Source of the DNA: a virus
Lineage: Duplodnaviria; Heunggongvirae; Uroviricota; Caudoviricetes
Length of the DNA stretch: 41,251 nt
IMG/VR virus record: IMGVR_UViG_2869976549_000005
Reading direction: 5' to 3' (one strand)
Positions 1,527 through 39,112 of this stretch are shown one piece after another. The notes under the pieces are model-generated. The model did no database searches, was not told the DNA's origin, and was given only the letters and a program-made list of their open reading frames with translations. Each line of letters opens with the position of its first letter. Position 1 is the first letter of the stretch. A program made the position numbers and the translations under genes.

Positions 1527-1652
1527 TGAATGCAAAACCCCGGATGATCACCGAGGTTAATTTTATCGAGCGTGATTGCCGCTAATCGCCATCGCTCTGA
1601 TTGAGCGTAAATCATTCAGGTTATTCAGTTCTTCCTTCTGCTCTCGCTGACG

Positions 1653-1799
1653 TCAATAAATCCCATCATTGCGATCAACCTCATCCTTAACCATTGATGC
1701 GAGCAGTTCTTCCAGTTTCTGCGCTGACAGCTTTACCTGGTGATCTTCAGCATCTTCCCGGGCTATTGTGGTTCGCGCAGTGGCTGATTTTGCTGACAT
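1653..1799 (-). CDS. hypothetical small protein (48 aa, MSAKSATARTTIAREDAEDHQVKLSAQKLEELL...)
   Basis: Short ORF between the Rha-family gene and the Tfa remnant; weak RBS; no recognisable family. Confidence 0.2.
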   Translation of the reverse strand: MSAKSATARTTIAREDAEDHQVKLSAQKLEELLASMVKDEVDRNDGIY

Positions 1800-1887
1800 C
1801 ACCACAGGGGGCAGACGGACCATTGAACCATGGCCTCCGGAACAAATAAGGGCAAAAATAACAACCACTATCGAAAGCTCACAAACT

Positions 1888-2020
1888 AACCGCAGCACGT
1901 TCCTGCATACGACGTGTCTGCGGCATAATCCCAATGATTACTCCCTGACAGGATTTGCAGGCCACTCAATATCAGGTGCAGTTGATGTATCAACACGATT
2001 CAACAATACCCGATATTTAT
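1888..2020. repeat. direct repeat copy 1 (~130 bp; tfa 3' end plus hairpin), flanks the methyltransferase gene
   Basis: Near-identical to 2948-3078; begins with inverted repeat CCGCAGCACGT...ACGTG(T)CTGCGG. Confidence 0.8.
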
Positions 2021-2157
2021 TCCATGCCTCCAGCAACGATCTTTCTTCCTCCGTTGCGATTTCCAGATCTACAGCATCCTGCAGTGGCGCAATATACTCA
2101 CTAAATTCCTGGATGTAGAACTGTGTGGTGACGGTCTTCCAGCCATTCGGCTCCTGC
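1930..2157 (-). pseudogene. tfa: tail fibre assembly protein (Tfa) C-terminal remnant
   Basis: Minus-strand frame encodes ...[50 protein letters not shown], the conserved Tfa C-terminus; no N-terminal part upstream. Confidence 0.6.
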
Positions 2158-2275
2158 TGTATCGAAGCATACTAGGCTATTTCAATATCGCTATGCTGCG
2201 GCAGCATTTAACCCCTTGTAATTCATCGCCATAATTGATTTAATTCACAAATAAAACTATAACATGGTGAAATCA

Positions 2276-2932
2276 ATGAAAACAAACACAGATGATGGGG
2301 CTAAAATTTACACACCACTTACCCTAAAGCTTTATGACTGGTGGGTTTTGGGAGTATCAAATCGGCTTGCATGGGGATGTCCTACAAAGGAACACCTTCT
2401 TCCACACTTTCTGGAACATTTAGGTAACAACCATCTGGATATTGGTGTTGGAACTGGGTTTTACCTTACTCACGTACCTGAGAGTAGTCTGATATCTTTA
2501 ATGGATTTGAACGAAGCTAGCCTGAACGCGGCATCTACAAGGGCTGGGGAATCAAAAATTAAACATAAAATTAGCCATGATGTTTTTGAACCTTATCCCG
2601 CGGCGTTACATGGTCAATTTGATTCCATTTCCATGTTTTACCTTCTTCACTGCCTGCCTGGAAATATATCTACAAAAAGCTGTGTAATACGCAATGCGGC
2701 GCAGGCCTTAACTGACGATGGAACTCTATACGGAGCCACAATTCTTGGCGATGGAGTTGTGCACAATAGCTTCGGTCAAAAACTGATGCGCATTTACAAT
2801 CAGAAAGGCATCTTTTCAAACACAAAAGATTCCGAAGAAGGCTTAACACATATACTCTCAGAGCATTTCGAGAATGTTAAAACCAGGGTTCAAGGTACTG
2901 TAGTAATGTTTTCCGCTTCAGGGAAAAAATAG
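2276..2932 (+). CDS. class I SAM-dependent methyltransferase, small (218 aa), AT-rich cargo gene
   Basis: Motif I DIGVGTG, acidic post-I LMDLNEA, motif II FDSISMFYLLHCLP; no DPPY/NPPY motif (so probably not a DNA amino-methyltransferase); GGTGA RBS before ATG 2276 (alternative ATG at 2264); hairpin terminator just after the stop. Confidence 0.75.
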   Translation: MKTNTDDGAKIYTPLTLKLYDWWVLGVSNRLAWGCPTKEHLLPHFLEHLGNNHLDIGVGTGFYLTHVPESSLISLMDLNEASLNAASTRAGESKIKHKISHDVFEPYPAALHGQFDSISMFYLLHCLPGNISTKSCVIRNAAQALTDDGTLYGATILGDGVVHNSFGQKLMRIYNQKGIFSNTKDSEEGLTHILSEHFENVKTRVQGTVVMFSASGKK

Positions 2933-2947
2933 CATCCAACCGCAGCA

Positions 2948-3078
2948 CGTTCTTGCTTAAGACGTGCTGCGGCATAATCCCAATGATTACTCCCTGACAG
3001 GGTTCGTAGGCCACTCAATATCAGGTGCAGTTGATGTATCAACACGGTTCAGCAACACCCGATACTTTTTCTAGGCTT
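2948..3078. repeat. direct repeat copy 2 (~130 bp; tfa 3' end plus perfect 11-bp-stem hairpin)
   Basis: CCGCAGCACGT-tcttgcttaag-ACGTGCTGCGG then sequence near-identical to 1888-2020; encodes ...[26 protein letters not shown] on the minus strand. Confidence 0.8.
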
Positions 3079-3079
3079 C

Positions 3080-3337
3080 CACCACCAGCACGACAAGATG
3101 CCGCATACAGTGACCCAGTCAGTCCAGTTTTCAGACAACCAGTGCGTCACCTTTTTGAAGGCGCTTTAAAGCACGTTTTAATCCAGGTCGGCCTGTCCTT
3201 GTTCCGCTTAATTTATCTTCAAATATTTGTTCATATCCTGCACAAACAAGAGCGTTTCGTTGCAGGTCTGTATTCTGGTCATTTGTTGATACCCTTACAT
3301 AGCCAATCAGCACGCTGAATCTCCCGTCCAAAAGCAC
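3080..3337 (-). pseudogene. pin: Pin/Gin/Hin-family DNA invertase (serine recombinase), N-terminal remnant with in-frame stops and 3' truncation
   Basis: MLIGYVRVSTNDQNTDLQRNALVCAGYEQIFEDKLSGTRTGRPGLKRALKRLQKGDALVV, then TGA where the conserved W and R codons should be, then fusion to the Tfa-derived repeat. Confidence 0.8.
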
Positions 3338-3368
3338 AAATCATGCCATGCAGGCCAGAAACCGCCAT

Positions 3369-3394
3369 TATCTAAAACCTCGGTTTACGAGAAC
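3369..3394. other. gix/hix-type inversion crossover site (left)
   Basis: TTATCTAAAACCTCGGTTTACGAGAA resembles the Mu gix / Salmonella hix 26-bp sites; inverted partner at 7551-7576. Confidence 0.7.
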
Positions 3395-5748: not shown

Positions 5749-6051
5749 ATGAGCAGAAAAACCCAACGTTACTCTAAAGAGTTCAAAGCCGAAGCTGTCA
5801 GAACGGTTCCTGAAAATCAACTTTCGATCAGTGAAGGCGCTTCCCGATTATCTCTTCCTGAAGGCACTTTAGGACAATGGGTTACCGCCGCCAGAAAAGG
5901 GCTCGGTACTCCTGGTTCCCGCACGGTGGCTGAACTGGAATCTGAAATTCTGCAACTGCGTAAGGCGTTAAATGAAGCTCGCCTTGAGCGAGATATATTA
6001 AAAAAAGCAACAGCGTATTTTGCACAGGAGTCGCTGAAAAATACGCGTTAA
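5749..6051 (+). CDS. IS600 OrfA (transposase N-terminal HTH component)
   Basis: MSRKTQRYSKEFKAEAVRTV..., 100 aa. Confidence 0.9.
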   Translation: MSRKTQRYSKEFKAEAVRTVPENQLSISEGASRLSLPEGTLGQWVTAARKGLGTPGSRTVAELESEILQLRKALNEARLERDILKKATAYFAQESLKNTR

Positions 6052-6086
6052 TCGAACAATGGCGACAACAATTTCCCATTGAAGCG

Positions 6087-6905
6087 ATGTGTCAGGTATT
6101 TGGTGTATCCAGGAGCGGTTATTACAACTGGGTACAGCATGAACCCTCAGACAGAAAACAAAGTGATGAGCGGCTAAAACTGGAGATTAAGGTGGCACAT
6201 ATCCGCACTCGCGAAACATATGGAACCCGGCGGCTCCAGACGGAGCTGGCAGAGAATGGCATCATTGTTGGTCGTGACCGACTGGCACGTCTTCGTAAGG
6301 AGCTAAGGCTACGCTGTAAGCAGAAACGCAAGTTCAGAGCGACTACGAACTCGAACCACAATCTGCCAGTTGCGCCAAATCTGCTGAACCAGACGTTCGC
6401 TCCTACAGCACCAAATCAGGTCTGGGTGGCGGACCTGACGTATGTTGCCACACAGGAGGGATGGTTGTACCTCGCTGGCATCAAAGATGTTTATACGTGC
6501 GAAATTGTCGGCTACGCCATGGGAGAGCGCATGACAAAAGAGCTGACAGGTAAAGCCCTGTTTATGGCGCTCAGGAGCCAGCGCCCACCTGCCGGGCTAA
6601 TCCACCACTCTGATCGAGGTTCACAGTACTGCGCATACGATTACCGGGTCATACAGGAGCAGTCTGGTCTGAAAACATCAATGTCGCGTAAAGGTAACTG
6701 TTACGACAACGCTCCGATGGAAAGCTTCTGGGGAACGCTGAAAAATGAGAGCCTGAGCCACTATCGTTTTAATAACCGGGATGAAGCCATCTCAGTAATA
6801 CGGGAATACATTGAGATTTTCTACAATCGTCAGCGTCGTCACTCTCGTCTGGGGAATATCTCCCCGGCAGCCTTCAGGGAAAAATATCATCAGATGGCTG
6901 CTTAA
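6087..6905 (+). CDS. IS600 OrfB (transposase catalytic DDE component; expressed as OrfAB fusion by frameshift)
   Basis: 272-aa ORF with IS3-family integrase-core sequence. Confidence 0.9.
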   Translation: MCQVFGVSRSGYYNWVQHEPSDRKQSDERLKLEIKVAHIRTRETYGTRRLQTELAENGIIVGRDRLARLRKELRLRCKQKRKFRATTNSNHNLPVAPNLLNQTFAPTAPNQVWVADLTYVATQEGWLYLAGIKDVYTCEIVGYAMGERMTKELTGKALFMALRSQRPPAGLIHHSDRGSQYCAYDYRVIQEQSGLKTSMSRKGNCYDNAPMESFWGTLKNESLSHYRFNNRDEAISVIREYIEIFYNRQRRHSRLGNISPAAFREKYHQMAA

Positions 6906-23695: not shown

Positions 23696-24514
23696 ATGTG
23701 TCAGGTATTTGGTGTATCCAGGAGCGGTTATTACAACTGGGTACAGCATGAACCCTCAGACAGAAAACAAAGTGATGAGCGGCTAAAACTGGAGATTAAG
23801 GTGGCACATATCCGCACTCGCGAAACATATGGAACCCGGCGGCTCCAGACGGAGCTGGCAGAGAATGGCATCATCGTTGGTCGTGACCGACTGGCACGTC
23901 TTCGTAAGGAGCTAAGGCTACGCTGTAAGCAGAAACGCAAGTTCAGAGCGACTACGAACTCGAACCACAATCTGCCAGTTGCGCCAAATCTGCTGAACCA
24001 GACGTTCGCTCCTACAGCACCAAATCAGGTCTGGGTGGCGGACCTGACGTATGTTGCCACACAGGAGGGATGGTTGTACCTCGCTGGCATCAAAGATGTT
24101 TATACGTGCGAAATTGTCGGCTACGCCATGGGAGAGCGCATGACAAAAGAGCTGACAGGTAAAGCCCTGTTTATGGCGCTCAGGAGCCAGCGCCCACCTG
24201 CCGGGCTAATCCACCACTCTGATCGAGGTTCACAGTACTGCGCATACGATTACCGGGTCATACAGGAGCAGTCTGGTCTGAAAACATCAATGTCGCGTAA
24301 AGGTAACTGTTACGACAACGCTCCGATGGAAAGCTTCTGGGGAACGCTGAAAAATGAGAGCCTGAGCCACTATCGTTTTAATAACCGGGATGAAGCCATC
24401 TCAGTAATACGGGAATACATTGAGATTTTCTACAATCGTCAGCGTCGTCACTCTCGTCTGGGGAATATCTCCCCGGCAGCCTTCAGGGAAAAATATCATC
24501 AGATGGCTGCTTAA
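23696..24514 (+). CDS. IS600 OrfB
   Basis: 272 aa. Confidence 0.9.
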   Translation: MCQVFGVSRSGYYNWVQHEPSDRKQSDERLKLEIKVAHIRTRETYGTRRLQTELAENGIIVGRDRLARLRKELRLRCKQKRKFRATTNSNHNLPVAPNLLNQTFAPTAPNQVWVADLTYVATQEGWLYLAGIKDVYTCEIVGYAMGERMTKELTGKALFMALRSQRPPAGLIHHSDRGSQYCAYDYRVIQEQSGLKTSMSRKGNCYDNAPMESFWGTLKNESLSHYRFNNRDEAISVIREYIEIFYNRQRRHSRLGNISPAAFREKYHQMAA

Positions 24515-27486: not shown

Positions 27487-27721
27487 GAATCCTCCCGGCC
27501 GGGATAATATTGTGAGTAAAATAAGGAGCGGGCTGAAGTCCGGAAGTTACAGGACAATGGCAGAAGAGAGACGACAGCCCGCAATTCGAAAAAGACCGCG
27601 CAGTTGCGCAGAGTGATTACTATGGGGTATTATTCGCCAGCTGAAATATTACTTCACGTTTTATTGTTTATTCCTTGCCGCCCGCGTCTCCCAGCGCGGG
27701 CTTTTTTTGCCCACAAGAAAA

Positions 27722-27950
27722 CCCCTCCGGAGAGGGGCTAAAGCCGCGTATCTGTATCATCATGCACATGGTGCCGGGTGCCTCCCGGTGAGTTCAGCCC
27801 GGTGCCACTAAACCCGCGTCATTCTCGTTTTGATAATCAGAGATTATACCGTCACCAGTCGCCCCTCCGCTCAGGGGGATTCACCATGCGAAATTTTTTT
27901 AACAAATGCCCAGTCTGACAGGCAACTGTCAACTTACTGAATTGTGAGCA
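27722..27950 (-). repeat. structured non-coding element, paralogue A
   Basis: Shares hairpin blocks with 29475-29685: CCCCTCCGGAGAGGGG, TGCCGGGTGCCTCCCGGTGA, CGCCCCTCCGC-CAGGGGGATTCACCATGC, AACTGTCAAC, CTGAATTGTGAG. Confidence 0.6.
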
Positions 27951-28422: not shown

Positions 28423-29241
28423 ATGTGTCAGGTATTTGGTGTATCCAGGAGCGGTTATTACAACTGGGTACAGCATGAACCCTCAGACAGAAAACAAAGT
28501 GATGAGCGGCTAAAACTGGAGATTAAGGTGGCACATATCCGCACTCGCGAAACATATGGAACCCGGCGGCTCCAGACGGAGCTGGCAGAGAATGGCATCA
28601 TCGTTGGTCGTGACCGACTGGCACGTCTTCGTAAGGAGCTAAGGCTACGCTGTAAGCAGAAACGCAAGTTCAGAGCGACTACGAACTCGAACCACAATCT
28701 GCCAGTTGCGCCAAATCTGCTGAACCAGACGTTCGCTCCTACAGCACCAAATCAGGTCTGGGTGGCGGACCTGACGTATGTTGCCACACAGGAGGGATGG
28801 TTGTACCTCGCTGGCATCAAAGATGTTTATACGTGCGAAATTGTCGGCTACGCCATGGGAGAGCGCATGACAAAAGAGCTGACAGGTAAAGCCCTGTTTA
28901 TGGCGCTCAGGAGCCAGCGCCCACCTGCCGGGCTAATCCACCACTCTGATCGAGGTTCACAGTACTGCGCATACGATTACCGGGTCATACAGGAGCAGTC
29001 TGGTCTGAAAACATCAATGTCGCGTAAAGGTAACTGTTACGACAACGCTCCGATGGAAAGCTTCTGGGGAACGCTGAAAAATGAGAGCCTGAGCCACTAT
29101 CGTTTTAATAACCGGGATGAAGCCATCTCAGTAATACGGGAATACATTGAGATTTTCTACAATCGTCAGCGTCGTCACTCTCGTCTGGGGAATATCTCCC
29201 CGGCAGCCTTCAGGGAAAAATATCATCAGATGGCTGCTTAA
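28423..29241 (+). CDS. IS600 OrfB
   Basis: 272 aa. Confidence 0.9.
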   Translation: MCQVFGVSRSGYYNWVQHEPSDRKQSDERLKLEIKVAHIRTRETYGTRRLQTELAENGIIVGRDRLARLRKELRLRCKQKRKFRATTNSNHNLPVAPNLLNQTFAPTAPNQVWVADLTYVATQEGWLYLAGIKDVYTCEIVGYAMGERMTKELTGKALFMALRSQRPPAGLIHHSDRGSQYCAYDYRVIQEQSGLKTSMSRKGNCYDNAPMESFWGTLKNESLSHYRFNNRDEAISVIREYIEIFYNRQRRHSRLGNISPAAFREKYHQMAA

Positions 29242-29474
29242 AAAAAGAACAAATGGTAGTGTCCGCTATTGCCAGTACACCTCAGGATAGCGGTCATGTG
29301 ATGCCGGTTTCCCGGTAACTCAGCACCGGTATCTGAGTCAACGTTTTCTCTACTGGGTCATTTCCGATACGCCCTGCCTGCTGACAGGCTTTCATCACAT
29401 CTGAAAATATAGCACCCTGACTGATACTGTAGTACCTAAGGTTCCAGAAACTGTGATGTATCCGGCACAGAAAA

Positions 29475-29685
29475 GCCCCTCCGGAGAGGGCTGGAGAGTG
29501 GCGCTATGTGCCATTGCATGATGCCGGGTGCCTCCCGGTGAATTCAGTACCAGCACCTGAATCCGCGATTATCCCATATACCTACTCGCTGATTGCCCCT
29601 CCGCACAGGGGGATTCACCATGCCAGTTTCTTTTAACAAACTCCCCGCAAAACAGACAACTGTCAACCGTCTGAATTGTGAGACA
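29475..29685 (-). repeat. structured non-coding element, paralogue B
   Basis: See 27722-27950; conserved hairpins with compensatory loop differences. Confidence 0.6.
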
Positions 29686-29728: not shown

Positions 29729-29805
29729 TGGCGCGTTGTACTGGATTCGAACCAGTGACCGATTGCTTAGAAGGCAATTGCTCTGTCCGGCTGAGCTAAC
29801 AACGC
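29729..29805 (-). tRNA. argO: tRNA-Arg (anticodon UCU), 77 nt, CCA encoded
   Basis: Cloverleaf deduced by hand: acceptor GCGUUGU/ACAACGC, anticodon loop CUUCUAA, T-loop GGTTCGAATCC. Confidence 0.8.
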
Positions 29806-29843: not shown

Positions 29844-31181
29844 CATAAGCGCTAACTTAAGGGTTGTGGTATTACGCCTGATATGATTTAACGTGCCGAT
29901 GAATTACTCTCACGATAACTGGTCAGCAATTCTGGCCCATATTGGTAAGCCCGAAGAACTGGATACTTCGGCACGTAATGCCGGGGCTCTAACCCGCCGC
30001 CGCGAAATTCGTGATGCTGCAACTCTGCTACGTCTGGGGCTGGCTTACGGCCCCGGGGGGATGTCATTACGTGAAGTCACTGCATGGGCTCAGCTCCATG
30101 ACGTTGCAACATTATCTGACGTGGCTCTCCTGAAGCGGCTGCGGAATGCCGCCGACTGGTTTGGCATACTTGCCGCACAAACACTTGCTGTACGCGCCGC
30201 AGTTACGGGTTGTACAAGCGGAAAGAGATTGCGTCTTGTCGATGGAACAGCAATCAGTGCGCCCGGGGGCGGCAGCGCTGAATGGCGACTACATATGGGA
30301 TATGATCCTCATACCTGTCAGTTCACTGATTTTGAGCTAACCGACAGCAGAGACGCTGAACGGCTGGACCGATTTGCGCAAACGGCAGACGAGATACGCA
30401 TTGCTGACCGGGGATTCGGTTCGCGTCCCGAATGTATCCGCTCACTTGCTTTTGGAGAAGCTGATTATATCGTCCGGGTTCACTGGCGAGGATTGCGCTG
30501 GTTAACTGCAGAAGGAATGCGCTTTGACATGATGGGTTTTCTGCGCGGGCTGGATTGCGGTAAGAACGGTGAAACCACTGTAATGATAGGCAATTCAGGT
30601 AATAAAAAAGCCGGAGCTCCCTTTCCGGCACGTCTCATTGCCGTATCACTTCCTCCCGAAAAAGCATTAATCAGTAAAACCCGACTGCTCAGCGAGAATC
30701 GTCGAAAAGGACGAGTAGTTCAGGCGGAAACGCTGGAAGCAGCGGGCCATGTGCTATTGCTAACATCATTACCGGAAGATGAATATTCAGCAGAGCAAGT
30801 GGCTGACTGTTACCGTCTGCGATGGCAAATTGAACTGGCTTTTAAGCGGCTCAAAAGTTTGCTGCACCTGGATGCTTTGCGTGCAAAGGAACCTGAACTC
30901 GCGAAAGCGTGGATATTTGCTAATCTACTCGCCGCATTTTTAATTGACGACATAATCCAGCCATCGCTGGATTTCCCCCCAGAAGTGCCGGATCCGAAAA
31001 GAAGAACTAACTCGTTGTGGAGAATAACAAAAATGGTCATCTGGAGCTTACAGGTGGCCATTCGTGGGACAGTATCCCTGACAGCCTACAAAACGCAATT
31101 GAAGAACGCGAGGCATCGTCTTAACGAGGCACCGAGGCGTCGCATTCTTCAGATGGTTCAACCCTTAAGTTAGCGCTTATG
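29844..31181 (+). mobile_element. IS186 (IS4 family), 1338 bp, inserted at a GGGG-N7-CCCC site with ~12-bp target duplication
   Basis: Termini CATAAGCGCTAACTTAAGGGTTG...CAACCCTTAAGTTAGCGCTTATG; GGGACTTGAACCC duplicated on both sides. Confidence 0.9.
29893..31173 (+). CDS. IS186 transposase
   Basis: MNYSHDNWSAILAHIGKPEELDTSARNAG... 426-aa ORF. Confidence 0.9.
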   Translation: MPMNYSHDNWSAILAHIGKPEELDTSARNAGALTRRREIRDAATLLRLGLAYGPGGMSLREVTAWAQLHDVATLSDVALLKRLRNAADWFGILAAQTLAVRAAVTGCTSGKRLRLVDGTAISAPGGGSAEWRLHMGYDPHTCQFTDFELTDSRDAERLDRFAQTADEIRIADRGFGSRPECIRSLAFGEADYIVRVHWRGLRWLTAEGMRFDMMGFLRGLDCGKNGETTVMIGNSGNKKAGAPFPARLIAVSLPPEKALISKTRLLSENRRKGRVVQAETLEAAGHVLLLTSLPEDEYSAEQVADCYRLRWQIELAFKRLKSLLHLDALRAKEPELAKAWIFANLLAAFLIDDIIQPSLDFPPEVPDPKRRTNSLWRITKMVIWSLQVAIRGTVSLTAYKTQLKNARHRLNEAPRRRILQMVQPLS

Positions 31182-31251
31182 GGACTTGAACCCCGCGCAG
31201 CCAGCTTCGAAGGCTGGCGCTCTTTCCTGATGAGCTAATGGCGGTATGTGA

Positions 31252-31327
31252 TGGTGGCCCTTGCTGGATTTGAACCAGCGACCTGGCGATTATGAGTCGC
31301 TCGCTCTCACCACTGAGCTAAAGGGCC
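31252..31327 (-). tRNA. ileZ: tRNA with anticodon CAU, ileX/ileZ-like (tRNA-Ile2 type), 76 nt
   Basis: GGCCCUUUAGCUCAGUGG...anticodon loop CUCAUAA...GGUUCAAAUCC...CCA; resembles E. coli ileX rather than initiator or elongator Met. Confidence 0.7.
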
Positions 31328-35833: not shown

Positions 35834-35989
35834 TTACTCCTCAGGTTCGTAAGCTGTGAAGACAGCGACCTCCGTCTGGCCGGTTCGAATTCGTACCTCG
35901 CAGAGGTCTTTCCTCGTTACCAGTGCCGTCACTATGACGGTTAAACAGATGACGATCAGGGCGATTAACATCGCCTTTTGCTGCTTCAT
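35834..35989 (-). CDS. hok: Hok/Gef-family type I toxin (51 aa; RelF/HokD-like)
   Basis: MKQQKAMLIALIVICLTVIVTALVTRKDLCEVRIRTGQTEVAVFTAYEPEE; AAGGAG RBS; in-frame upstream extension to 36046. Confidence 0.85.
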   Translation of the reverse strand: MKQQKAMLIALIVICLTVIVTALVTRKDLCEVRIRTGQTEVAVFTAYEPEE

Positions 35990-36200
35990 AGCCTGCTTCT
36001 CCTTGCCTTTCGGCACGTAAGAGGCTAACCTAGATTTGCCGTTCATAGATTGAGCCTCAGATTAATGTTAAGCGTCTTGCCGGACGCGTAATGTTAACTG
36101 GGGCTTTTCTCTATCTGCCTTTTGGTGTTCATGCCTGAGACAGATAGCCTCAAGCACCCGCTGCAATTCTACTTAACTCTCCTTTTCCCGCAAACCGTTT

Positions 36201-38293: not shown

Positions 38294-39112
38294 TTAAGCA
38301 GCCATCTGATGATATTTTTCCCTGAAGGCTGCCGGGGAGATATTCCCCAGACGAGAGTGACGACGCTGACGATTGTAGAAAATCTCAATGTATTCCCGTA
38401 TTACTGAGATGGCTTCATCCCGGTTATTAAAACGATAGTGGCTCAGGCTCTCATTTTTCAGCGTTCCCCAGAAGCTTTCCATCGGAGCGTTGTCGTAACA
38501 GTTACCTTTACGCGACATTGATGTTTTCAGACCAGACTGCTCCTGTATGACCCGGTAATCGTATGCGCAGTACTGTGAACCTCGATCAGAGTGGTGGATT
38601 AGCCCGGCAGGTGGGCGCTGGCTCCTGAGCGCCATAAACAGGGCTTTACCTGTCAGCTCTTTTGTCATGCGCTCTCCCATGGCGTAGCCGACAATTTCGC
38701 ACGTATAAACATCTTTGATGCCAGCGAGGTACAACCATCCCTCCTGTGTGGCAACATACGTCAGGTCCGCCACCCAGACCTGATTTGGTGCTGTAGGAGC
38801 GAACGTCTGGTTCAGCAGATTTGGCGCAACTGGCAGATTGTGGTTCGAGTTCGTAGTCGCTCTGAACTTGCGTTTCTGCTTACAGTGTAGCCTTAGCTCC
38901 TTACGAAGACGTGCCAGTCGGTCACGACCAACGATGATGCCATTCTCTGCCAGCTCCGTCTGGAGCCGCCGGGTTCCATATGTTTCGCGAGTGCGGATAT
39001 GTGCCACCTTAATCTCCAGTTTTAGCCGCTCATCACTTTGTTTTCTGTCTGAGGGTTCATGCTGTACCCAGTTGTAATAACCGCTCCTGGATACACCAAA
39101 TACCTGACACAT
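38294..39112 (-). CDS. IS600 OrfB
   Basis: 272 aa. Confidence 0.9.
   Translation of the reverse strand: MCQVFGVSRSGYYNWVQHEPSDRKQSDERLKLEIKVAHIRTRETYGTRRLQTELAENGIIVGRDRLARLRKELRLHCKQKRKFRATTNSNHNLPVAPNLLNQTFAPTAPNQVWVADLTYVATQEGWLYLAGIKDVYTCEIVGYAMGERMTKELTGKALFMALRSQRPPAGLIHHSDRGSQYCAYDYRVIQEQSGLKTSMSRKGNCYDNAPMESFWGTLKNESLSHYRFNNRDEAISVIREYIEIFYNRQRRHSRLGNISPAAFREKYHQMAA

Follow-up and report, generated by a model that had tools for sequence, protein, structure and literature searches.

Why does an intact methyltransferase gene lie between two copies of the end of a tail fiber assembly (tfa) gene, beside a decayed invertase gene, and what kind of enzyme does it encode? This question was addressed in the window, the whole 41,251-nt stretch of a Caudoviricetes genome that was analyzed (IMG/VR record IMGVR_UViG_2869976549_000005). 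A preliminary description, made from the sequence, had viewed the gene as a cassette that entered by recombination at the tfa 3′ end or terminator, in a plausible variable slot for modification, defense or anti-defense cargo. The features of the region are as follows.

1563..1841, minus strand: DUF4376-type (tail-fiber-assembly-like) pseudogene, downstream of the left tfa fragment (EC958 RefSeq annotation, by offset)
1888..2035, no strand: left repeat copy, made up of a hairpin and the 3′-terminal codons of a tfa gene (89.2% identity to 2938-3084)
1890..1923, no strand: left hairpin, arms of 11 and 12 nt and one bulged nucleotide, immediately 3′ of the tfaX-like stop codon (folding)
1938..2192, minus strand: tfaX-like fragment, the last 84 codons of a tail fiber assembly gene, interrupted in frame by a TAG (translation; homolog of K-12 tfaX)
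2235..2263, plus strand: putative promoter in front of the methyltransferase gene, with sigma-70-type hexamers TTGATT-17-TATAAC (sequence reading)
2276..2932, plus strand: intact gene for a predicted class I SAM-dependent methyltransferase, 218 aa, ybcY ortholog, PHROG 2132 (profile matches, ~99% nucleotide identity to ybcY)
2938..3084, no strand: right repeat copy (matches the 3′ end of K-12 tfaD)
2940..2972, no strand: right hairpin, fully paired 11-bp stem, flanked by the stop codons of the convergent methyltransferase and tfa′ genes (folding)
2987..3084, minus strand: tfa′, the 3′-terminal ~32 codons of a tfa gene, which contain a TAG and form an in-frame fusion with the pin remnant (translation)
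3085..3313, minus strand: pin (serine invertase) remnant, N-terminal ~76 codons, two in-frame TGA, C-terminal half deleted (Resolvase N-terminal domain, E 4.6e-15)
3368..3393, no strand: single candidate pix/gix-type crossover site, 26 nt, between pin and the invertible tail-fiber segment (sequence reading)

ORF 2276-2932, for which RefSeq uses an upstream alternative start (ATG at 2264), has a product that is predicted to be a class I (Rossmann-fold) SAM-dependent methyltransferase. Pfam families Methyltransf_12, 23, 25 and 11 scored above their cut-offs (37.6 bits against 30 for Methyltransf_12), motif I (GxGxG) reads DIGVGTG, the PHROG 2132 match (E 9e-156) covered 218/218 profile positions, and the AlphaFold model (pLDDT 91) has the seven-stranded methyltransferase fold. 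These results bear out the class assigned at first sight, as does the lack of a DPPY/NPPY motif on reading the sequence. The GC content of the gene (41.4%) differs from that of its immediate flanks (47.2%) and of the window (51.5%), as expected of a moron. It had been called much more AT-rich than its flanks, which is only moderately true, because the neighboring stf/tfa genes are likewise low (42.7%).

The closest known counterpart is ybcY of the K-12 prophage DLP12, which has ~99% nucleotide identity to the ORF and is flanked by tfaD and tfaX (b0561-b0563). Identity over the full length places the gene in the YbcY family, as does its location in a lambdoid prophage with a tfa end on one side and a tfaX-type fragment on the other. 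Judged by homology, the arrangement is already known as the long-annotated tfaD-ybcY-tfaX of DLP12, and is not a new cassette. The two loci share the gene, the convergent tfa, the hairpin, the promoter hexamers and the promoter-side tfa 3′ fragment. However, the gene is intact here, whereas K-12 ybcY is a pseudogene in which the ATG is lost and 2 nt are deleted; the gene on the tfaD side is cut here to ~32 codons and fused to the pin remnant; the tfaX-side fragment ends in another tfa allele, homology with K-12-type contigs breaking near 1983; and the prophage is at ompW, not at the DLP12 site. The ompW position is deduced from EC958: homology with this strain indicates integration in ompW, and the whole 2-kb arrangement, including the pin fusion, was found at 99.5% identity in ST131 genomes, adjoining trpA/ompW.

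The direct repeat comprises 1888-2035 (148 nt) and 2938-3084 (147 nt), both in the same orientation, and a global alignment gave 132 identical columns out of 148, with one 1-nt indel inside the hairpin. Two direct copies bracketing the gene had thus been seen correctly, but the right one starts at 2938 rather than 2948, and "near-identical" is too strong a term for 89% identity. On the minus strand, both copies encode a Tfa C-terminus ending in (A/T)NPVRE and a stop codon, in agreement with the first translation. In most contigs, the left copy has GGATTTGCA and the right copy GGGTTCGTA; together with the 89% identity, these copy-specific differences argue that the duplication of the tfa end is old and is not remade at each transfer. 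The left tfa fragment (255 nt), annotated in EC958 as a partial tail fiber assembly pseudogene, is in part another tfa allele. The DUF4376-type pseudogene 1563-1841 beyond it contains an internal stop in translation, and the EC958 locus used for mapping is 99.3% identical. The two repeats appear to derive from separate tfa alleles whose ends were brought together by an old phage-phage recombination, and do not look like a duplication left by a fresh insertion.

Each copy had been said to open with a hairpin of 11-bp stem. This is correct for the right one, whose stem is CCGCAGCACGT/ACGTGCTGCGG (dG -23.9/-27.9 kcal/mol, z about -5.2), but the left one is bulged (dG -18.5/-22 kcal/mol, z -3.6/-2.8). 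The stem-loop behind tfa genes is conserved, with compensatory changes in 5/12 pairs, and an Rfam search of the whole window found no family covering either hairpin. No U-tract is present, so that a terminator role for the hairpin is something we infer. The methyltransferase gene is oriented opposite to the late genes. An alternative hexamer pair, TTAACC-16-CATAAT, occurs at 2208-2235. For ybcY, TTGATT-17-TATAAC has been given as a constitutive, RpoD-dependent promoter, and the ybcY/tfaX spacer as bearing an H-NS mark (PMC3946193). Transcription would run opposite to the late operon, starting at a sigma-70 promoter in AT-rich DNA bound by H-NS and ending at the hairpin.

Across 79 anchored loci, promoter, gene and right hairpin stay together, while the flanks vary: the right hairpin was linked to the gene in 79/79 loci, and of the evaluable loci only one lacked the linked promoter segment. 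Among 65 loci that could be evaluated for a tfa core around the gene, 39 had one on both sides, 15 only downstream, 7 only upstream and 4 on neither side. Homology breakpoints clustered at the hairpin and tfa end, though not at a single position: 1866, 1960 and 1983 on one side and 2972, 3060 and 3081 on the other.

The same tfa 32-mer, with at least 300 nt of flank, was followed at 115 sites, 64 of which had no methyltransferase gene beside the tfa end. Some contigs (L018, L069 and others) keep the hairpin and the tfa end and lack the gene, the flanks then being adjacent, a pattern expected for a moron. Other sites carry a MASE4-GGDEF cyclase, a resolvase, an RVT_1 reverse transcriptase, an AAA_5 McrB-like ATPase, CdtA/CdtB, an OspG/NleH-like kinase, a DUF4236 protein, or DinI plus an integrase. 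Even the identical pin′/tfa′ junction was found with the MASE4-GGDEF cyclase, with the resolvase, or with a methyltransferase-deletion scar; such scars, retaining just the last 36 nt of the gene, occur in L032, L269, L279 and phage Ayreon. The cassette interpretation was to be considered weak if related prophages always carried the same gene here, and if the protein clustered with housekeeping small-molecule methyltransferases. Because unrelated genes occupy the slot in related contigs anchored at the tfa end, the first does not apply. Sequence comparison thus supports the view, proposed earlier, that a variable slot for cargo lies behind the tfa 3′ end.

We consider it probable that the intact ybcY ortholog is a moron in the cargo zone of a lambda-like prophage, and that its repeats arose without a dedicated cassette mechanism. 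The moron would be a self-contained gene with its own promoter, located between the tail-fiber genes and the attachment end. The left repeat would be part of the 84-codon tfaX-type remnant, the usual companion of the gene on its promoter side, and the right repeat would be the 3′ end of the resident tfa, convergent with the gene. In the present lineage, a later deletion that joined the resident tfa to a decayed pin may have left only ~32 codons of it. Recombination among lambdoid and P2/Mu-like prophages could use the conserved tfa 3′ end and hairpin as shared homology, and sequence behind the hairpin would therefore be swapped between phages. The order of events behind the two tfa ends is a reconstruction.

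A different origin of the repeats would be a Campbell-type event, in which a circular or unequal-crossover intermediate, containing the gene and one tfa end, integrates homologously at any resident tfa 3′ end; crossing-over between the repeats so created could then loop the unit out, and the gene would still be mobile among co-resident prophages. We regard this as unlikely. It is consistent with the 39/65 loci in which direct repeats surround the gene, and with the single-copy sites L018 and L069, which combine a left-type outer flank with a right-type hairpin. Targets are also ample (the median genome has 3 places with a tfa end), and the gene is at least 98% identical across prophages at different sites (DLP12, the ompW prophage, free phages), with up to 4 copies per genome. 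However, the repeats, with their recurring GGATTTGCA/GGGTTCGTA differences, point to an old duplication, the left fragment extends over 255 nt and partly belongs to another allele, one or both tfa cores are missing in 26/65 loci, and hybrid-repeat excision products were not identified among the contigs compared, the breakpoints being scattered. The same evidence (two tfa alleles, scattered junctions, only 39/65 loci flanked on both sides) speaks against cassette entry at the tfa 3′ end as first proposed. A more specific version, a site-specific cassette (integron-like or recombinase-borne), is not supported. It does not fit the varying boundaries, the 26/65 copies without one or both tfa cores, or repeats that are tfa coding sequence with 89% identity; in addition, pin, the sole nearby recombinase, is dead and the pix site is located elsewhere.

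The state of pin was examined further. The remnant reads ...GDALVV*KLD*LGHCMRHLVVLVVEA*KKYRVLL (asterisks are stops), i.e., two TGA in pin, an in-frame junction and the TAG in tfa; the junction, positioned by alignment to K-12 tfaD, is GGCTTCCA / CCACCAGC. This translation agrees with the preliminary reading of the right copy as fused to a twice-interrupted pin, and EC958 annotates the remnant as incomplete, with its C-terminus missing. The site at 3368-3393 is one that we take to be gix-like, from its likeness to Mu gix and Hin hix. Allowing up to 3 mismatches, the window contains no second pix site; in four related contigs, homology ends precisely at the crossover site (3383-3388), and the far end of the invertible segment is interrupted by an IS at 5749-6905. 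A working tail-fiber switch of the Pin/Gin/Cin type was rejected on account of the truncated invertase with two TGA and the single pix site. Intact pins with the same N-terminal 29-mer are followed by P2/Mu-type tail genes (tape-measure-like and gpU-like, as judged by eye) or a Mom-like gene (also by eye), but in no case by the methyltransferase gene; a precursor of the pin′/tfa′ fusion was therefore not found among them.

The neighborhood recalls that of prophage e14, where, as had been stated correctly, K-12 pinE is followed by mcrA. In both, a Pin-type invertase adjoins an invertible stf/tfa segment and a cargo gene comes after it. However, pin is dead here, with two TGA, a deleted C-terminal half and one pix site, and the cargo is unrelated to McrA. 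The methyltransferase of e14, YmfD, lies at the opposite end of that prophage and is dissimilar; the comparison with it that had been suggested gave a BLASTP E of 14, and we rejected kinship.

What does the enzyme act on? Profile and structure analyses, also suggested at the outset, yielded a class I enzyme that resembles small-molecule or lipid methyltransferases and lacks DNA methyltransferase motifs. Fold matches were to small-molecule and lipid methyltransferases, the best among the matches listed being phosphatidylethanolamine (PE) and phosphoethanolamine N-methyltransferases, and no DNA methyltransferase was among them. The protein shares with JHAMT, the bacterial PE N-methyltransferase 8ys9, phosphoethanolamine methyltransferase and UbiG/Coq5 a Rossmann fold, an N-terminal helical lid, a length of ~220 aa and SAM motifs, but identity to these is only 12-22% and the match list is flat, with no single enzyme assignable. 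NCBIfam gave no equivalog at cut-off, only far sub-threshold matches to CpaM, RquA and PmtA; the PADLOC defense library gave a mere weak generic match to mad2; and a limited literature search on the gene name found no function for ybcY. The family comprises 414 representatives at E<=1e-30, including proteins from Aspergillus and Pirellulaceae. The homologs in Enterobacter and Yersinia lie on the chromosome as single genes, not in prophages, no conserved operon partner was found around distant homologs, and among longer members a fused domain was seen in one case only (fungal RCC1 repeats, uninformative).

Alternatively, the gene could serve in phage-host conflict by encoding a nucleic-acid methyltransferase: an orphan DNA methyltransferase that shields phage DNA from restriction, or a tRNA/rRNA methyltransferase that alters host translation or blocks a defense. 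We give this view very little credence. The 218-aa sequence contains no (D/N/S)PP(Y/F/W) motif IV (the equivalent position reads FDSISMFYLLHCLPG), and its model has no target-recognition or other extra domain. The missing motif and missing target-recognition domain speak against a DNA amino-methyltransferase (N6-A or N4-C). A C5-cytosine methyltransferase does not fit either, as there is no Pro-Cys dipeptide and 218 aa compares with a ten-motif architecture of more than 300 aa. The fold matches also stand against a nucleic-acid substrate, as do the relatives, which occur singly on chromosomes, outside phage contexts, and also in fungi. Because of the small-molecule/lipid grouping and the chromosomal, non-phage relatives, sequence and model argue against a DNA-modification, defense or anti-defense role for this gene, the role first suggested for it. 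Likewise, clustering with housekeeping small-molecule methyltransferases holds in part, with a similar grouping and chromosomal relatives outside phages. Under the moron interpretation, the product would be a cytoplasmic small-molecule or lipid-head-group methyltransferase, acting on a host metabolite in the lysogen and not on DNA.

A ybcY-type gene was detected in 3836/5426 complete E. coli genomes and in 16 phage records, including the viable lambdoid phages 2G7b and ev243. All sampled copies were intact (140/140), with a pN/pS of 0.21, which indicates purifying selection, and conservation within the family is strong (identities from 56% to 90%), many residues being invariant. These observations, and the presence of the gene in viable phages, make it hardly credible that the stretch from 1.5 to 3.4 kb is functionless debris, a graveyard of pseudogenes (DUF4376′, tfaX′, tfa′, pin′) with a methyltransferase gene merely unbroken so far, even though every neighboring gene is decayed, K-12 ybcY is a pseudogene, and some sites retain only the 36-nt scar. 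A K-12 ybcY mutant was reported to respond to Hha overexpression in the same way as its parent strain (PMC2408971); given this and the pseudogene state of the K-12 copy, the gene is dispensable, at least in the laboratory.

Morons are a type of accessory gene of lambda-like prophages, and the P2 Z/fun accessory locus lies downstream of the tail-fiber assembly gene G. As in Z/fun, a variable slot is found here right behind a tfa-type gene, and in some contigs the same tfa 32-mer is followed by defense-like genes; however, the phage of the window is lambda-like, and P2 affiliation of the defense-gene contigs is not implied. Swapping at P2/P4 hotspots has been described (PMC13586616), as have exchangeable effector loci (EELs) at the tail-fiber end of lambda-like prophages and the cargo loci that lambda-like ompW prophages carry at their ends (PMC8112680). 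With morons and EELs, the locus shares a lower-GC accessory gene, a position behind the tail-fiber genes near the prophage end, and other cargo at the same place in related phages. Transcription independent of the late operon would be a further likeness. It differs in that its cargo is a methyltransferase instead of a T3SS effector or outer-membrane protein, and in the leftover tfa fragment attached to it.

The layout is therefore ordinary: it is the DLP12 arrangement in another lambdoid prophage, within a recognized cargo zone, and requires no new mechanism. The uncharacterized ybcY is among the commonest accessory genes of E. coli prophages, and is intact, under purifying selection and present in viable phages. 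We give little credence to the more speculative idea that YbcY may be a lysogenic-conversion enzyme that adds a methyl group to a small metabolite or lipid head group of the host (for example an ethanolamine-type amine, as the best fold matches would suggest, or a small-molecule immune signal), altering the envelope or blunting defense; if true, it would explain the intact, constrained prophage-cargo copy seen in 71% of complete E. coli genomes. With its hairpin, the conserved tfa 3′ end marks a boundary for the exchange of virulence, signaling and defense genes, and could anchor the mining of prophage cargo.

The methyltransferase gene is, by sequence comparison, the orthologue of E. coli K-12 ybcY, and the locus is the long-annotated ybcY moron with tfaD/tfaX flanks, of low novelty. 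At a cut-off of 95% identity or more, a 757-nt query (2180-2936) matched 3836 of 5426 complete E. coli genomes, K-12-type strains at 98.9%. The MG1655 match lies in the cryptic prophage DLP12, where ybcY, a pseudogene on the opposite strand, sits in the same sandwich between tfaD and tfaX; the tfaD 3' end and hairpin align with the right repeat of the window, and tfaX and the ybcY promoter spacer with its left fragment. In K-12 the start codon of ybcY is lost (ATG to ATA) and 2 nt are deleted, whereas the window copy is intact. The whole 2-kb arrangement, including the pin'/tfa' fusion, was found in 377 genomes at 99.5% identity, largely ST131 strains such as EC958 among the genomes listed. 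In the ST131-type locus (e.g., EC958) it lies at the end of an ompW-inserted prophage, adjoining trpA. In viable lambdoid phages, including 2G7b and ev243, the gene is present with the tail-fibre genes on one side and the cargo/integrase end on the other. The IMG/VR contig L046/L133 (IMGVR_UViG_2869953405_000008) is 99.9-100% identical to the window and has the gene at matching positions (2276-2929); its source is probably the same genome or one almost identical to it.

The locus comprises the following features (repeats by repeat search and global alignment, tfa fragment by translation, folding z-scores against shuffled sequence):

1888-2035, left direct repeat
1890-1923, left hairpin, stem with a bulge, z -3.6/-2.8
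1938-2192, minus strand, tfa fragment of 84 codons with its own TAG, the left repeat being its end
2276-2932, plus strand, methyltransferase ORF between the repeats (RefSeq start, ATG at 2264)
2938-3084, right direct repeat
2940-2972, right hairpin, perfect 11-bp stem, z -5.2

The preliminary description was borne out in that direct repeats bracket the ORF, each opening with a stem-loop that folds far better than shuffled sequence (the 11-bp stem is perfect only on the right), and in that the minus strand of each codes for the C-terminal end of a tail fibre assembly protein, finishing in (A/T)NPVRE*. The right copy does continue, in the same frame, as the N-terminal portion of a Pin-type serine invertase with two TGA stops. 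Its start, placed at 2948, is corrected to 2938, and the copies, called near-identical, share only 132 of 148 aligned columns (89.2%), with a single 1-nt indel inside the hairpin. The gene had also been considered much more AT-rich than its flanks; its GC content (41.4%) is indeed 6 points lower than in the flanks and 10 lower than the average of the window, but roughly equal to that of the neighbouring stf/tfa genes.

Many tfa alleles are followed by this hairpin as a conserved stem-loop, and 5 of 12 pairs show compensatory changes among the 13 variants compared. Some contexts have a T-run after the hairpin on the plus strand, to which the convergent cargo gene belongs, suggesting that convergent genes share it as a terminator; no U-tract follows it in the window. 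A 45-aa "hypothetical protein" annotated by RefSeq (minus strand, 2877-3014; WP_001309429.1 in EC958) is probably a spurious call; it runs across three real features, namely the 3' end of the methyltransferase gene, the hairpin and the stop codon of tfa'. Upstream of the gene, at 2235-2263, are the hexamers TTGATT-17-TATAAC; PMC3946193 lists these as the constitutive RpoD promoter of ybcY and marks H-NS in the spacer between ybcY and tfaX. Given the promoter position, translation likely starts at the 2276 ATG rather than at 2264; the PHROG profile and homologues from other genera are consistent with this start. Since the gene is oriented against the late operon, its expression would not depend on that operon.

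Origin of the flanking repeats was assessed in 120 viral contigs with an exact 32-mer from the tfa end and in 80 contigs anchored on the methyltransferase. The gene had been proposed to be a cassette that entered by recombination at the tfa end. Among 65 evaluable loci, only 39 have tfa cores on both sides of the gene, 15 have one just downstream of it, 7 just upstream and 4 have none; in phage 2G7b the 3' neighbour is not a tfa gene. Junctions are scattered: contiguous homology to the window ends on the right at 2972 (just beyond the hairpin), 3060, 3080/3081 (the pin junction) or the pix site, and on the left at 1866, 1960/61, 1983 or 1575. The right hairpin is linked to the gene in 79/79 anchored loci and the promoter segment in all evaluable loci but one; outer flanks on both sides of this promoter-gene-hairpin module vary. 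In most contigs the left and right copies keep copy-specific differences, e.g., GGATTTGCA vs GGGTTCGTA. These old allele-specific differences, together with the 89% identity between the repeats, indicate that the repeats derive from a pair of distinct tfa alleles, which phage-phage recombination brought together long ago, and not from a duplication regenerated at each insertion. Old recombination at conserved tfa ends is thus favoured over the cassette mechanism.

The suggestion of a variable cargo slot held up, as different genes follow the same tfa 32-mer: a DinI-family gene (by eye) with an integrase, CdtA (by eye) with CdtB (Exo_endo_phos), an RVT_1 reverse transcriptase, a McrB-like AAA_5 protein, an OspG/NleH-like kinase and a DUF4236 protein; other contigs have unknown ORFs, IS elements or chromosomal flank there. 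The pin'/tfa' junction GGCTTCCACCA recurs unchanged in contigs whose homology to the window breaks off somewhere inside the last ~20 tfa' codons (3000-3047). This identical junction is followed in two contigs (L222, L225) by a 443-aa MASE4-GGDEF diguanylate cyclase, with a different stem-loop variant behind the tfa' stop, and in two others (L219, L259) by a 196-aa resolvase; cargo has therefore been exchanged behind a fixed tfa' remnant. Deletion scars, with the gene missing from ~2235 to 2898, occur in L269 and L279 (both near the pin 29-mer), L032 and phage Ayreon (MF807953); they retain the last 32-36 nt of the gene (36 nt in L269 and L279), the hairpin and the tfa end, so this site has seen loss of the gene as well as gain. 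Such a slot fits earlier descriptions of exchangeable effector loci at the extreme end of lambda-like prophages in ompW (PMC8112680) and of hotspot swapping among temperate phages (PMC13586616).

Several other features of the prophage were observed. The Pin switch is dead: pin', with its two TGA stops, is truncated after ~76 codons, only one pix-type site is left (3368-3393), and the invertible stf/tfa segment is cut at its far side by an IS (5749-6905), which interrupts the tail-fibre variable region and removes the segment's second end. A 272-aa ORF, a putative IS3-family transposase orfB (by eye), occurs four times (5749-6905, 23696-24514, 28423-29241 and 38294-39112), and an IS load of this kind suggests that the host is a Shigella-like or an IS-rich E. 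coli. The window opens inside a putative IS1 insB gene (1-378, by eye) and homology to the EC958 ompW-integrated prophage begins only at 480, within an ompW remnant; thus, IS1 replaces the trpA-side chromosomal flank here. At this prophage end, isrK (733-807) and a C4 antisense RNA (831-918; both Rfam) immediately precede the ash/Rha genes (954-1526), and the region has the appearance of an immunity module in the c4-ant style of P1/P7, placed in the cargo zone of the methyltransferase gene. Two STnc100 sRNA copies surround an IS, beside three phage tRNA genes (27709-27918, 29463-29652, 29732-29805, 31178-31327); the arrangement is reminiscent of the Q-tRNA-(stx)-nanS stretch in Stx-type lambdoid phages but contains no stx-sized ORF. 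The early region has a sok antitoxin RNA of a hok/sok-type module (35984-36159).

As proposed, the ORF encodes a class I methyltransferase (four generic Pfam methyltransferase domains above cut-offs) and lacks a DPPY/NPPY motif; it contains neither a Pro-Cys motif nor an extra domain. It is unrelated to YmfD, the e14 methyltransferase suggested for comparison. PDB sequence and profile searches reached only JHAMT and UbiG, NCBIfam and PADLOC searches returned nothing significant, and PHROGs assigned family 2132 (function unknown). The family is broad (414 representatives at 50% identity, E<=1e-30), with Aspergillus and Pirellulaceae among its members. Enterobacter hormaechei and Yersinia have homologues of 56-65% identity, which are single genes on the chromosome and not within prophages; a Klebsiella homologue is located near an IS1, in a region that looks accessory and is not phage. 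A Salmonella homologue (L214-L216, 67% identity) occupies a prophage cargo zone between integrase and tail-fibre genes, next to mutS, and is followed after 137 nt by a same-strand gene for a 173-aa ricin-B lectin. A small-molecule-type methyltransferase is favoured over a DNA-modification or defence enzyme. Among viral contigs, 140/140 full-length copies were intact (34 alleles), with pN/pS of 0.21. ybcY is a very common, selectively maintained prophage gene.
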